NCBI RefSeq assembly: GCF_054482595.1
Contig: NZ_CM137008.1
Length of the DNA stretch: 64,000 nucleotides
Strand: one strand, 5' to 3'
Of this stretch, positions 31,248-35,828 are shown piece by piece. The notes beneath the pieces are model-generated. The model had not been told where the DNA came from and did no database searches. It saw nothing but the letters and a program-made list of their open reading frames with translations. Position numbers and translations under genes: made by a program. Every line of letters starts with the position of its first letter. Position 1 is the stretch's first letter.

Positions 31248-32669
31248 TTACAATAACCATTCCACGGGCAATATCGACGCCAGTCTGACCATAACCCGCT
31301 TCCAGAAACTGGTGGCGGGTTCTTTTTTGAGAACAATCTCTTTCTTTGCATGACGATCAACCCAGTTGATCCGTCCCCACCTGTCCAGACGGAGCTGCCA
31401 GGCCGCATCATACTGGCTCTGAATAAAGCGTTTATCAATTAACTGAGCCAGCGTTTCGCTCTCTATCACGAAGCCCATTTCAGTATTGAGCAATGTTGAA
31501 CGCGGATCGAAATTGAAAGAACCGATAAACACCGTTTTACCATCGATGCTAAAGGTTTTAGCATGCAGGCTGGCACCGGAATTACCTGTTATGCCGCGAT
31601 CGTGTAACGTACTACTTTGTTCACGCGTCGGCTTGAGTTCATATAATTCCACGCCATAACGGAGCAATTTTTTGCGCCAGCGCGCGTATCCGGCATGGAC
31701 GACAGCAACATCGTTAGCGGCAAGAGAATTGGTTAGGATCGCAATCTTTACCCCTTTTCTCACCATCCGTAAGAGTTGCGCCACACCTGCGCGTGTCGGT
31801 ACAAAATAGGAAGAGATAATATCGATGCGTTCACTGGGTGAGCCCATGATATCGAACAGGCGCTGCGGTAACAGCGAATGCCGTTTTGCCTTGCCCTCCC
31901 CTTTCGCCGGATCATCACTTAATAAACGTGTCTTCGCCCAGATAAGCGGCAACGTTCCATCAACCAGATGATTTATAAACGGACTGGATTCCATTTTGCG
32001 TAAGTAACGATGCGTCATGGCATCGTTATGCCATGAGGCGGGTAACTCGATGCGATCCGCCATTTCACCTTCCGGGACATCCAGCACCTGCTGTAAGGGT
32101 GAAACCGATTTGCAATACCAGTAGCGGGCGAAATCATCGGCAACGTCCTCTACTACGGGTCCTATTGCCATGACATCTAAATCCGAAAAAAGTGGCTCTT
32201 CCCCTGCCCCAAAATAGGCATCACCAATATTTCGCCCCCCTACCAGCGTCACCACGCCATCGACAGTGAAACTTTTATTGTGCATACGGCGATTGAGACG
32301 GGAAAAGTCGGTGATATAACCAAGCGGACGCAGCAAGCGAAACGAGAAAGGATTAAAAAGCCGGACTTCAATGCGGGGATGGCTGTCAAGCAAGCGTAAA
32401 ATGTCGTCAAGTCCGGGCGTATTGTTGTCGTCCAGCAACAAACGGACGCGAACGCCACGCTTTGCTGCGGCTAACAGGGCGGAAAACAGTAACCGACCCG
32501 ACATATCGTCCTGCCAGATGTAATACTGAACATCCAGCGTATGCTCTGCCATTTCGGCCAGAAGATACCGGGCGGCAAACGCATCCAGACTTTTCTCCAG
32601 AGGGAAAAGACCACACTGACCGGGATGTTGCGAACACAGTGGCAGCACCGCGCTCGCCAGCCGGGGCAA
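31248..32669 (-). CDS. clsC: Cardiolipin synthase C ClsC (YmdC), phospholipase D family (473 aa)
   Basis: ORF translation with two HxK(x4)D-like motifs; start assigned to TTG at 32669 preceded by AAGGAG, giving 473 aa; ORF track runs to ATG 32738. Confidence 0.9.
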   Translation of the reverse strand: MPRLASAVLPLCSQHPGQCGLFPLEKSLDAFAARYLLAEMAEHTLDVQYYIWQDDMSGRLLFSALLAAAKRGVRVRLLLDDNNTPGLDDILRLLDSHPRIEVRLFNPFSFRLLRPLGYITDFSRLNRRMHNKSFTVDGVVTLVGGRNIGDAYFGAGEEPLFSDLDVMAIGPVVEDVADDFARYWYCKSVSPLQQVLDVPEGEMADRIELPASWHNDAMTHRYLRKMESSPFINHLVDGTLPLIWAKTRLLSDDPAKGEGKAKRHSLLPQRLFDIMGSPSERIDIISSYFVPTRAGVAQLLRMVRKGVKIAILTNSLAANDVAVVHAGYARWRKKLLRYGVELYELKPTREQSSTLHDRGITGNSGASLHAKTFSIDGKTVFIGSFNFDPRSTLLNTEMGFVIESETLAQLIDKRFIQSQYDAAWQLRLDRWGRINWVDRHAKKEIVLKKEPATSFWKRVMVRLASILPVEWLL

Positions 32670-32670
32670 A

Positions 32671-33203
32671 TCATTCATCTCCTTGTTGGGTAAGGAGTCT
32701 TTCGTAGAGGTGGGCGTTTTCTTCATCATAACAGACAAAGTATACCTGTTCGGGTAAAGCGTGACGGGTAATAAATTCTGAAACGGTTTTTACTGCGATT
32801 TCAGCCGCTGCCGCACGAGGGTAACCATAAACCCCAGTACTGATTGCAGGAAAAGCCACTGACGTATAGCTGTTTGCCGCCACCAGTCGCAGGCTATTGA
32901 GATAGGCATCCTGCAAAAGCTGGTCTTCGTTTTGTTCACCACCACGCCAGACTGGCCCGACGGTGTGCACTACGGCTTTAGCGGGAAGATCGCCTGCAAG
33001 CGTAATAACGGCATGCCCCGTAGGGCAATCGCCCTGCTGTTGCCTGACTTTTAAACAAGCATCCAGCAGGGCCGGACCCGCTGCGCGATGAATGGCCCCA
33101 TCGACGCCGCGCCTCCCATTAATGACGGATTAGCCGCATTCACAATCACATCAACGGCCAGTTTGGTAATATCACCCTGCACAACATGAATACGCGTTTT
33201 CAT
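32671..33203 (-). pseudogene. ymdB: ymdB (macrodomain O-acetyl-ADP-ribose deacetylase) disrupted by a 1-nt deletion in the Gly-Gly-Gly-Gly tract
   Basis: ATG 33203 reads [31 protein letters not shown] then shifts frame near 33106-33113 (ggaggcgcggcgtc) to a stop; rest of YmdB is intact in the -1 frame to 32671. Confidence 0.75.
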
Positions 33204-33297: not shown

Positions 33298-34062
<765 letters not shown>

Positions 34063-34120
34063 ATTCTTCTCCCGAAAAAAAACAGGGCTTGCGCCCTGTT
34101 TCTTTAATACAGATGATGTA

Positions 34121-34579
34121 TTAGTACTGATGAGCGGTCGCGTTGTTACCAAAGCCAACCTGAGTTACGTTGACGGTGGAATTAGATGCAGTCTGGTCAA
34201 CCGCTGCACCGTTGCCGCCACCGAACTGTTTAACTGTCATATGAGAGTCTTTACCGTTCCACTGATCAAGAGTGGCGCTGTTACCAAAGCCACGTTGGGT
34301 CAGATCGATTGAGCTGTCATCTGAGCCCTGACCAACATCTGCACCGTTACCACCACCATGCTGGGTAATAGTCAAGTCAGAGTTACGGGCATCAGCTTGC
34401 AGAGCAAGTGCAGAGTTACCACCACCGTACTGATAAATATTCAGCTCTGAATTCGGGCCGCTGTTATTACCACCACCACCGTGGTTACCGCCACCGCCGC
34501 CGTACTGAGGAACAACACCTGCCAGAGCGCTACCGGAGAATACGATTGCTGCAATTGCTGCTACTTTTAAAAGTTTCAT
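34121..34579 (-). CDS. csgA: Major curlin subunit CsgA
   Basis: ORF translation MKLLKVAAIAAIVFSGSALAGVVPQYGGGGGNHGGGGNNSGPNSELNIYQYGGGNSALALQ with Q/N-rich amyloid repeats. Confidence 0.97.
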   Translation of the reverse strand: MKLLKVAAIAAIVFSGSALAGVVPQYGGGGGNHGGGGNNSGPNSELNIYQYGGGNSALALQADARNSDLTITQHGGGNGADVGQGSDDSSIDLTQRGFGNSATLDQWNGKDSHMTVKQFGGGNGAAVDQTASNSTVNVTQVGFGNNATAHQY

Positions 34580-34619
34580 GTAAAACCCCCATCGGATTGA
34601 TTTAAAAGTCGAATGGAAA

Positions 34620-35075
34620 TTAACGTTGTGTCACGCGAATAGCCATTTGCGACTGTCTCTGCACTACAATTGCCGTTTTTTGAGTACCATACTGTGTAAT
34701 ATTTGCTTTATTACCAGAACCTTTCTGGATAATCATCGCAGTATTACCATAAGCACCTTGCGAAATACTGGCATCGTTGGCACTGCCCGCCTGATCAATA
34801 TATGCAAGGTTATAATCTCCTGTCTGGTCAATCTTTGCCCGGTTGCTACTACCTTCTTGCGCAACAACCGCCAAAAGTTTTGAGCCTCCCTGCCGTAACT
34901 GAGCACTATTATTAGTCCCAGCTTGACCAATTATGGCTGCCTGATTAAATGAAGACTTACTCAATTCATTTACCGCGAAGTTATATTCTGAATTAGCTAA
35001 ATCATAACCTGCTGCGGCTGCAATCCCAGGCGCACCCAATATTGTTAACATCATAAATAACAATTTGTTTTTCAT
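34620..35075 (-). CDS. csgB: Minor curlin subunit / nucleator CsgB (151 aa)
   Basis: Translation from ATG 35075 MKNKLLFMMLTILGAPGIAAAAGYDLANSEYNFAVNEL. Confidence 0.95.
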   Translation of the reverse strand: MKNKLLFMMLTILGAPGIAAAAGYDLANSEYNFAVNELSKSSFNQAAIIGQAGTNNSAQLRQGGSKLLAVVAQEGSSNRAKIDQTGDYNLAYIDQAGSANDASISQGAYGNTAMIIQKGSGNKANITQYGTQKTAIVVQRQSQMAIRVTQR

Positions 35076-35828
35076 GTTGTCACCCTGGACCTGGTCGTAC
35101 ATTTAAGAAATTAAATCATTTCAACTTGGTTGTTAACGCAACCTGTATTTTGTTAACGCTGCGTTACGATGGAAAGTATGTCTGCGGAAATATTTTTAAT
35201 AACTCACCCGCGCGTTGTATTTTTCTTTTTTTGTTCATACCAAAGTATTAAAAGCCACGTAAATACGCTGTTATCTACGCAAAAAATATTTTGTTTTCTT
35301 TTAAATCTCCGTTTTCCGCTAGCAAAAAACACCAGACAGTCATTCTTCTTGCCCGTCGCTGATTGCTGCGATATGTCTTGCGCACAAGCCGTGACAAACC
35401 TCGTCTTTTTGCAGTAAAAAATTGTCCACGGTGGTGTGGAGAAAAAACAAGAACGTTTTACATGACGAAAGGACTACACCGAAATATTTTTTATATGCAT
35501 TATTAGTAAGTTAGCACCATTTGTATGATTTTTTAAAATTGTGCAATAAAAACCAAATGTACAACTTTTCTATCATTCCTAAACTTAATAAAACCTTAAA
35601 GTTAACATTTCAATATAACGAGTTACATTTAGTTACATGTTTAACACTTGATTTAAGATTTGTAATGGCTAGATTGAAATCAGATGTAATCCATTAGTTT
35701 TATATTTTACCCATTTAGGGCTGATTTATTACTACACACAGCAGTGCAACATCTGTCAGTACTTCTGGTGCTTCTATTTTAGAGGCAGCTGTCAGGTGTG
35801 CGATCAATAAAAAAAGCGGGGTTTCATC
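35076..35828. promoter_or_regulatory. csgBAC / csgDEFG divergent intergenic regulatory region
   Basis: 753-bp AT-rich gap between divergent csgB and csgD; known to hold both promoters and many regulator sites; individual sites not resolved here. Confidence 0.7.

Follow-up and report, generated by a model that had tools for sequence, protein, structure and literature searches.

Where does the enzyme ClsC begin? ClsC is a cardiolipin synthase that uses phosphatidylethanolamine as its phosphatidyl donor, and public databases carry models of 473, 476 and 493 amino acids for it together. The 473-aa form, which starts at a TTG codon, is the curated one in E. coli K-12 MG1655 (b1046, NP_415564.2, 1106355–1107776) and in UniProt (CLSC_ECOLI), and the ClsC mass used in the field, 53,666 Da, is the mass of this form (the form started at site A would have roughly 55.9 kDa); we found no experimental basis for the curated K-12 start in the accessible literature. 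The 493-aa PGAP model (WP_021556697.1 and its relatives) is found in strain Santai and in every other non-K-12 E. coli record examined, and the 476-aa model is used by some pipelines (72 contigs). The original prediction for this locus, that clsC is initiated at the TTG, restates the existing K-12 annotation and is not new. With three lengths in the databases, the ambiguity passes to expression constructs, mass-spectrometry searches and knockout designs. The question is one of annotation, and its mechanistic side can be tested; it is ordinary biology, and no new kind of biology is involved.

The DNA analysed (the window) is a stretch of 64,000 nt from assembly GCF_054482595.1, contig NZ_CM137008.1, in which clsC and ymdB both lie on the (−) strand. 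Table 1 lists the features of the ymdB–clsC junction, including the three candidate start regions, which are called sites A, B and C.

Table 1. Candidate clsC starts and other features at the ymdB–clsC junction (window coordinates).
Feature	Position	Strand	Remarks
clsC coding region, longest annotated extent	31248..32729	(−)	body from 32669 downward common to all three models
Predicted 12-bp hairpin	32630..32657	(−)	begins 12 nt past TTG
Invariant block of 55 nt	32646..32700	(−)	−31 to +23 around TTG; K-12 compared with two divergent E. coli-like lineages
Site C, TTG candidate clsC start	32667..32669	(−)	clsC frame; 473-aa product
ymdB stop TGA	32671..32673	(−)	
Site B, in-frame ATG	32676..32678	(−)	476-aa product; abuts SD; overlaps ymdB stop as ATGAATGA
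Shine-Dalgarno (SD) AAGGAG	32679..32684	(−)	within last ymdB codons CAA GGA GAT (174–176)
CTCCTT, complementary to SD	32692..32697	(−)	predicted 6-bp hairpin with 7-nt loop, sequesters SD
Site A, ATG ATG pair in the clsC frame, within ymdB	32724..32729	(−)	from ymdB codons TAT GAT GAA
In-frame TTG, mechanical ORF start	32736..32738	(−)	496 aa; CAGGTA at 4–5 nt aligned spacing
ymdB (macrodomain deacetylase), frameshifted	32671..33203	(−)	one G lost from GGCGGCGGC near 33110

A single base, T32670, separates the ymdB stop from the TTG of site C, which thus begins 2 positions past the last stop base, and the gap between the SD and this TTG is 9 nt (32678–32670). The original prediction had located these elements correctly: the TTG in the clsC frame directly past the ymdB TGA, the AAGGAG 9 nt before it, the product of 473 aa, and the in-frame ATG of site B, 3 codons upstream of the TTG and 2 nt before the ymdB stop, abutting the SD. 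NP_415564.2 of K-12 MG1655 has this length and this start codon; ymdB ends there at 1106353, clsC starts two positions on at 1106355, and the surrounding sequence does not differ from that of the window. The PGAP model describes the same gene in the same frame with a start 60 nt upstream, at the first ATG of site A (32729; 493 aa), and overlaps ymdB by 59 nt; the second ATG of site A (32726) would give 492 aa. It had also been claimed that the reading frame opens with an ATG at 32738 that overlaps ymdB by 68 nt, but that codon is a TTG and only a mechanical ORF start; the 68-nt figure holds for it and not for the annotated start.

A site C product would have the N-terminus (M)PRLASAVLPLCSQHPGQCGLFPLEK, i.e., (M)PRLAS..., and a site B product MNDLPR, while the peptide EMNDLPR is specific to site A products. 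The conserved (T/P)RLxxA...PLC motif starts at codons 2–3 counted from the TTG, which heads the conserved protein body. That body has two PLD-like (HKD) domains (Pfam PLDc_2 in two stretches, E = 2e-40, plus the PLDc active-site motif), and RefSeq gives the product name ClsC; there is no ClsC-specific NCBIfam model, so profile matches give no N-terminal boundary.

How good a start is site C? AAGGAG occurs 20 times in the window against an expectation of 21.3, so as a hexamer it shows no enrichment; the motif alone carries no weight, and it is its position and conservation that do. A simplified, home-made RBS model, whose values are rough, gives an SD hybridisation energy of −8.5 kcal/mol at an aligned spacing of 7 and a total of +3.6 kcal/mol for site C. 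This ranks it first among the clsC candidates, although the start of ymdB itself is predicted to be about 30-fold stronger, since 20.6 kcal/mol of structure has to unfold at site C. Site A, without a strong SD and in AU-rich surroundings, is poor at +8.3 kcal/mol, and site B, which with an aligned spacing of −1 is unable to use the SD, reaches +13.3 kcal/mol, the worst value among the annotated candidates (A0 to C), which bears out the earlier judgement that ATG 32678 is an unlikely start.

The TTG of site C is present in 4676 of 4677 E. coli genomes (the remaining one has TTA, and none has CTG), and the AAGGAG is invariant among the sampled E. coli variants. When K-12 is compared with the two divergent E. 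coli-like lineages, the 55-nt block around the TTG is the longest invariant run in the 1.93 kb of ymdB–clsC (the next longest is 32 nt), all sixteen 40-nt windows with zero changes fall within it, and its conservation includes synonymous sites downstream of the ymdB stop. Outside E. coli and these two lineages, in which the TTG is kept, the picture varies. In E. albertii the TTG is replaced by TTA and the AAGGAG by AAGGCG, so that SD and TTG are lost together, which shows site C to be dispensable in this close relative; no allele of this kind turned up when the E. albertii junction was searched against the E. coli collection. Six Citrobacter have ATG at the codon homologous to the TTG, and stops interrupt the upstream clsC frame in C. 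werkmanii (at −18 and −12) and in Citrobacter strain R56 (at −33); a start at this codon is viable, as Citrobacter shows. The codon for Gly175 of YmdB is GGA also in four other genera that have no downstream start codon.

The upstream start had been regarded as a mere artefact of ORF calling, and the comparison across genera does not bear this out. Nine enterobacterial genera have non-start codons at sites B and C and not one stop in the clsC frame from the ATG inside ymdB onward. In Salmonella, Leclercia and Superficieibacter not one ATG, GTG or TTG occurs from site A to +90, and in most enterobacterial genera with ymdB–clsC, among them Salmonella, Enterobacter, Leclercia and Kosakonia, clsC can start only at site A. 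When the YmdB tail is recoded synonymously, the probability of encountering no stop is 0.19–0.31 for the genera with an LLTQQ tail, and the product of these null probabilities, with one species taken per genus, is about 1.5e-4; the clsC frame has thus been kept open across genera beyond chance. In E. coli alone an open upstream frame has a chance probability of about 0.3 and is therefore weak evidence on its own. Of 17 species, 16 encode Leu171 of YmdB by CTT or CTC, while CTG, CTA, TTG or TTA at this position would put the clsC frame out of use by a stop, and the lone CTG species has an ATG at site C; among 4551 E. coli genomes there were no stop-creating Leu171 variants, an absence that is weak evidence.

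The ymdB codons themselves point the same way. Synonymous codon identity in ymdB peaks at 0.57–0.62 at codons 151–165, around site A, and is 0.53 in the tail vs. 0.425 in the body, where not one of 124 blocks as long as the tail attains its value; ymdB is thus under additional synonymous-site constraint at site A. The Tyr codon that forms the first ATG of site A is TAT in all 12 species that have Tyr there, and the region is identical between E. coli and Salmonella over 36 nt. The N-terminal extension shows no constraint at the protein level within Escherichia: the six substitutions that fall between −60 and −32 all alter its amino acids. A lipoprotein signal peptide in the extension was considered and rejected by eye, since LPLC does not conform to the canonical lipobox and the hydrophobic stretch is not long enough.

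Folding predictions place the SD of site C in a hairpin with the CTCCTT a few bases upstream, and this pairing is found in both the minimum-energy and centroid folds; the paired bases do not vary among the sequences, so there is no covariation. In the predicted 12-bp hairpin downstream of the TTG, five pairs change on one side with pairing kept and none change on both sides (the shuffle control was uninformative). The structure z-score for the 111-nt junction region is −2.4.

Several published data sets bear on the choice of start. Tetracycline ribosome profiling (TetRP) lists a candidate "ymdC ATG −57" at the K-12 junction (Nakahigashi et al. 2016, PMC4909307, Table S2 row 99), which is the second ATG of site A. 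The signal is 0/30.1/16.1 there vs. 0/0/5.7 at the TTG, about 22-fold in favor of the ATG, but the authors classed the site as "not conclusive (5′ ORF)" because it lies within the translated ymdB, where elongation confounds the signal (PMC4909307). Their screen covered in-frame NTG codons up to 60 nt upstream and gave no second clsC candidate, so that site B was not flagged, and their tally of genes with two in-frame starts stands at 22 cases (PMC4909307). In INRI-seq, a published cell-free initiation profiling method, the TTG had 0 CPM in five of five replicates; the synthetic fragment, which was abundant in the pool, carried the SD, ATG 32678 and the TTG, and site A was outside it. This null is consistent with masking of the SD. 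No alternative start at site B is listed in INRI-seq, and published Ribo-RET data have nothing at the TTG; since clsC is poorly expressed in exponential phase (it is induced in stationary phase or at high osmolarity), in vivo negatives at the TTG are weak. ClsC is absent from the supplements of the TRAINSPOTTER N-terminomics and Salmonella riboproteogenomics studies.

We tentatively favor, at a little less than an even chance, a reading in which clsC has two usable in-frame initiation regions, of which site C is coupled to ribosomes finishing ymdB. Site A, an AUGAUG 59 and 56 nt before the ymdB stop, would be the older start and would yield ClsC of 493 or 492 aa with a hydrophilic N-terminal tail whose sequence is free to vary between lineages. 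Site C would be specific to the E. coli lineage, with its AAGGAG-9 nt-UUG arrangement at the ymdB stop giving the 473-aa protein. On naked mRNA, site C would be masked by the pairing of the SD with CUCCUU and by the 12-bp hairpin that starts at +12, and a ribosome finishing ymdB would open the structure and re-initiate at the UUG; such translational coupling would be the main mode in which site C fires. The sequence geometry, the conservation patterns and the published profiling values are observations; from these we infer the use of both sites in vivo, the structural masking of site C and the coupling. The observation behind the original prediction is partly confirmed and its interpretation partly supported: the SD geometry and the curated K-12 and UniProt start speak for the TTG as a clsC start, but not as the whole story, with site A kept in E. 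coli.

Could one of the sites suffice? If only the TTG were used, as in the original prediction and the curated K-12 model, the 473-aa protein would be made from UUG 32669 by SD-guided re-initiation after ymdB, and the upstream open frame would be a leftover without a product. The SD geometry, the 55-nt invariant block, the Citrobacter precedent, the curated model and the mass in field use all fit this, as do an extension without protein-level constraint in Escherichia and an open frame that chance would leave in about 30% of cases. However, the 36 nt around site A are the same as in Salmonella, which has no other possible start, and initiation there would then be expected on the E. coli mRNA as well; moreover, the TetRP values at the TTG are low although ymdB is translated, the INRI-seq value is zero, and E. 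albertii and one E. coli genome have TTA. We consider exclusive use of the TTG rather unlikely. The converse, which corresponds to the PGAP model, is that ClsC is made only from 32729 or 32726, as in other Enterobacteriaceae, that the TTG is an internal Leu codon, and that the AAGGAG arises incidentally from the codons used in ymdB. Stop avoidance across genera and synonymous constraint at site A argue for it, as do the −57 TetRP candidate, the blank INRI-seq and Ribo-RET results at the TTG, the TTA and AAGGCG of E. albertii, and the GGA at Gly175 in the four genera without a later start codon, but it does not account for the peak of conservation that the two genes have at −31 to +23. The near-invariance of the TTG in E. 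coli, the joint loss of SD and TTG in E. albertii and the viable Citrobacter start also stand against it, and exclusive use of site A is, in our estimate, improbable.

Site B could be used if ribosomes that end ymdB at the overlapping UGA (AUGAAUGA) slid back and re-initiated at ATG 32678 to give the 476-aa protein. As a start codon AUG is much superior to UUG, and it lies here just before the ymdB stop; E. albertii keeps this ATG despite its loss of the TTG, the codon is within the invariant block, and some pipelines annotate it. On the other hand, the SD abuts it, outside Escherichia an ATG at this ymdB Asp codon occurs only in some Citrobacter, and neither TetRP nor the INRI-seq listings have a signal there. 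The slide-back route is highly improbable, and we rejected ATG 32678 as the main start on its poor SD spacing and on the lack of signal in the two profiling data sets.

The favored two-site arrangement has known relatives. Classical coupled pairs with adjacent or overlapping stop and start codons, and with a structure-masked SD within the upstream ORF, include trpE–trpD, trpB–trpA and the MS2 coat–replicase pair. The ymdB–clsC junction resembles these in that stop and start are 1 nt apart, the SD is inside ymdB, a hairpin is predicted to hold the SD, and stand-alone initiation is absent from the in vitro data; unlike them, clsC has a second candidate start in frame 60 nt upstream, and its coupling to ymdB is predicted only. 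Long and short isoforms made from two in-frame starts of one gene are also known, among them those of infB (IF2 alpha and beta) and clpB, and the clsC candidate starts, 60 nt apart, would similarly give forms of 493 and 473 aa, although the clsC isoforms are putative.

The junction may also bear on an older observation. Why clones need the neighboring ymdB for good ClsC levels was said to have an unknown mechanism in a 2021 review (PMC8027125). One explanation, possible but doubtful, is that the boost from adjacent ymdB DNA acts in cis on translation at this junction: both initiation regions would sit in the 3′ end of ymdB, and ribosomes finishing ymdB would unmask the SD–UUG. E. coli would then be midway in moving the clsC start out of the overlap, with two isoforms, a move that Citrobacter would have completed and Salmonella not begun. 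According to the title of a 2024 paper, the ymdB product is reportedly not required for ClsC substrate specificity. If the final 60 nt of ymdB do contain the initiation regions, or if ymdB translation is needed, constructs that contain only the 473-aa ORF would be without the native signals.

The frameshifted strains Santai, whose ymdB carries the RefSeq label "frameshifted", SM107 and W619 offer natural cases of disturbed upstream translation. The original prediction's ymdB frameshift is indeed there, as a 1-nt deletion that creates a premature stop at 33053–33051. Dependence of clsC translation on ymdB translation is plausible from the predicted junction structure and the INRI-seq null, and a polar effect of the frameshift on clsC may reasonably be supposed; no sigma-70-like promoter was found inside ymdB. 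Under the two-site reading, the frameshift would halt ribosomes about 380 nt before the junction and would specifically lower the 473-aa form. In this strain the frameshift could reduce ClsC output through lost coupling or through Rho polarity. Three of 5423 genomes (Santai, SM107 and W619) match the window at 100% over exactly 2101 nt.

The ymdB gene and the adjoining downstream gene clsC (cardiolipin synthase C) both lie on the minus strand, and on that strand their junction reads ...AGA CTC CTT ACC CAA CAA GGA GAT GAA TGA T TTG CCC CGG.... [quoted passage not shown] The bare hexamer AAGGAG shows no excess over chance in the window (20 found, 21.3 expected). Upstream on the minus strand (33298-35102) are ymdA and the curli genes csgC, csgA and csgB, and opgC (mdoC) is convergent with clsC on its other side, a gene order that is normal for E. 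coli.

Candidate clsC starts and neighbouring features (binding energies are rough values from a simplified thermodynamic model of our own writing)
Feature	Position	Strand	Product or relation	Ribosome-binding energy (kcal/mol, rough)
ymdB start				-4.1
TTG, mechanical ORF start of clsC	32738	minus		+5.3
ATG, RefSeq-annotated clsC start	32729	minus	493 aa; 59-nt overlap with ymdB	+8.3
SD AAGGAG	32684-32679	minus	9-nt gap to TTG
In-frame ATG touching AAGGAG	32678-32676	minus	476 aa	+13.3
ymdB stop TGA	32673-32671	minus
TTG in clsC frame	32669-32667	minus	473 aa; one base past ymdB stop	+3.6

The region is 100% identical to that of E. coli O157:H16 strain Santai, and the locus was found in 5,423 of 5,426 complete E. 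coli genomes; five ymdB-clsC copies in this collection are on plasmid-labelled records. Because the curated clsC start of K-12 MG1655 (1106355) is this same TTG, with a 473-aa protein, the proposal of a TTG start is not new and restates the existing reference annotation. The ClsC mass quoted in the field, 53,666 Da, matches that computed for 473 aa. Exact look-ups showed that public databases list this protein in 473-, 476- and 493-aa versions, and the annotation itself is in conflict.

Alignment of 1.93 kb of ymdB and clsC from K-12 with two divergent E. coli-like lineages, which differ from K-12 at 11.6% and 12.2% of positions, gave a longest unchanged run of 55 nt, from -31 to +23 relative to the TTG (the runner-up is 32 nt), and all sixteen change-free 40-nt windows lie inside it. 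The block spans ymdB third-codon positions and, past the ymdB stop, synonymous positions of clsC, which places the constraint on the RNA rather than on either protein. The string AAGGAG-ATG-AAT-GAT-TTG is invariant among the sampled E. coli variant alleles; of 4,677 genomes, one has TTA in place of the TTG and none has CTG. The lone TTA genome is E. coli H1827/12 (NZ_CP013031.1, 1875799-1875859), the rest of whose junction is identical. Between -60 and -32 all six substitutions alter residues in the putative N-terminal extension; if made, this extension is under no sequence constraint. ACAAGGA (32681-32687, minus strand), overlapping the clsC SD, matches the core of the CsrA binding motif. CsrA acts on the neighbouring ymdA (PMC7492729), and the match might also help to explain why the 55 nt are conserved.

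We fetched 80 loci encoding ClsC relatives and examined the 22 with ymdB upstream alongside the window or K-12. In six Citrobacter species the counterpart of the TTG codon is ATG, and in two of these six, stops shut the upstream clsC frame (C. werkmanii at -18 and -12, strain R56 at -33), so a start at this codon is real in Citrobacter. In C. werkmanii an indel has changed the frame relation, the clsC ATG overlapping the ymdB stop as ATGA, and this junction looks like the completed form of a start-codon move. E. albertii has just two changes between -31 and +10, AAGGCG for AAGGAG and TTA for TTG, and keeps the ATG three codons upstream. Nine genera (Salmonella, Leclercia, Superficieibacter, Enterobacter, Pseudescherichia with the related strain ESNIH1, Kosakonia, Cedecea, Siccibacter and Buttiauxella) have neither ATG, GTG nor TTG at the two positions close to the ymdB stop. 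Salmonella, Leclercia and Superficieibacter have no start codon at all from the ATG(ATG) within ymdB to +90, so that their clsC has to begin inside ymdB, at the site used by PGAP in E. coli; E. coli and Salmonella are identical over 36 nt around these internal ATGs. Some distant, non-enterobacterial ClsC homologues carry an N-terminal lipoprotein-type signal (..LVAFLPGCSG..) that is absent from the enterobacterial proteins.

The clsC frame within ymdB also appears to be held open. When each species' YmdB tail was recoded synonymously from its own codon usage, LLTQQ-type tails left the clsC frame stop-free in 19-31% of recodings, and every genus without a later start codon has zero stops; the null probabilities, multiplied with one species per genus, give about 1.5e-4 on the only approximately true assumption that genera are independent. 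The constraint centres on Leu171-Thr172, where encoding Leu171 by CTG, CTA, TTG or TTA would interrupt the clsC frame with a stop: the codon is CTT or CTC in 16 of 17 species, the sole CTG being that of Citrobacter R56, where the downstream position is ATG. Synonymous codon identity is 0.53 in the last 25 ymdB codons versus 0.425 in the body, a tail value matched by none of 124 equal-length body blocks, and peaks at 0.57-0.62 in codons 151-165 around the internal ATGs. The Tyr codon that provides the first of these ATGs is TAT in all 12 species with Tyr at that position. E. coli retains the open frame, the Leu171 codon and the TAT, and no stop-creating Leu171 variant was found among 4,551 E. 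coli genomes.

The junction RNA is predicted to form three hairpins: a weak one spanning the internal ATGs, one of 6 bp in which CUCCUU (32697-32692) pairs with the SD, and one of 12 bp (32630-32657, minus strand) within the 473-aa ORF, beginning 12 nt after the TTG; the 111-nt region is more stable than shuffled sequences (z = -2.4). Neither the SD hairpin nor the 12-bp hairpin shows compensatory changes (across Escherichia, five pairs of the latter have a one-sided change that keeps pairing and none a two-sided change), and both therefore stay predictions. By modelled energy the TTG at 32669 is the best clsC candidate; its poor score stems mostly from the 20.6 kcal/mol of structure that has to be unfolded beforehand, and initiation there probably depends on ymdB translation.

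Since the SD-TTG region looks functional and the start inside ymdB is ancestral, the sole one available in most relatives, intact in E. coli and backed by tentative profiling data (TetRP, below), we tentatively favour two clsC starts in E. coli, at somewhat short of an even chance, and the original prediction, which dismissed the upstream start, was half right in its interpretation. Use of the TTG only, rather unlikely in our estimate, would fit the conserved block and the model; in INRI-seq, a cell-free assay that applies retapamulin profiling to synthetic 5' fragments, all five replicates returned 0 CPM at the annotated clsC start. The fragment was abundant in the pool and began at -30, so that SD, abutting ATG and TTG are included and the internal ATGs lie outside, and the assay detected about 70% of annotated starts overall. 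In vivo Ribo-RET values in the same table show no clsC signal, with 51 for ymdB. Initiation only at the upstream ATG, which we consider quite unlikely, draws some profiling support from TetRP (Nakahigashi et al. 2016, PMC4909307), where 'ymdC ATG -57' (32726) has signals of 0/30.1/16.1 versus 0/0/5.7 at the TTG; the authors class it as '5. not conclusive (5' ORF)' because it sits within a translated upstream gene, and this reading would leave the conservation of the SD-TTG block unexplained. The abutting ATG, invariant in the sampled alleles, was not called as an alternative start in INRI-seq, as the original prediction would have it, and has the worst modelled energy; we regard it as a most improbable start. 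No ClsC N-terminal peptide was present in the N-terminomics and riboproteogenomics supplements searched.

In the window ymdB has lost one G from GGCGGCGGC near 33110 (33108-33112, minus strand), and the frameshift leads to a premature stop at 33053-33051, at which ymdB ribosomes would halt some 380 nt short of the junction. The shifted frame is that of clsC, and three stops preclude any fusion. Santai, SM107 and W619, three of the 5,423 E. coli genomes, show 100% identity to the window across exactly 2,101 nt, further leading matches being 1 nt longer, and therefore appear to share the deletion; the annotation of Santai lists ymdB as a frameshifted pseudogene. The ymdB product is reportedly, by the title of a 2024 paper, not required for ClsC substrate specificity. 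How adjacent ymdB DNA raises ClsC levels is among the open questions of a 2021 review (PMC8027125), and we infer that both statements would be compatible with the 3' end of ymdB acting in cis on the translation of clsC. Over its final 120 nt the ymdB RNA is rich in C and poor in G and resembles a Rho loading site, making transcriptional polarity conceivable when ymdB is untranslated, and it is conceivable that the frameshift lowers ClsC through lost coupling or such polarity. The C/G ratio is 1.3-1.8 in 78-nt windows at 32700-32820 (minus strand), compared with a clsC median of 0.88.
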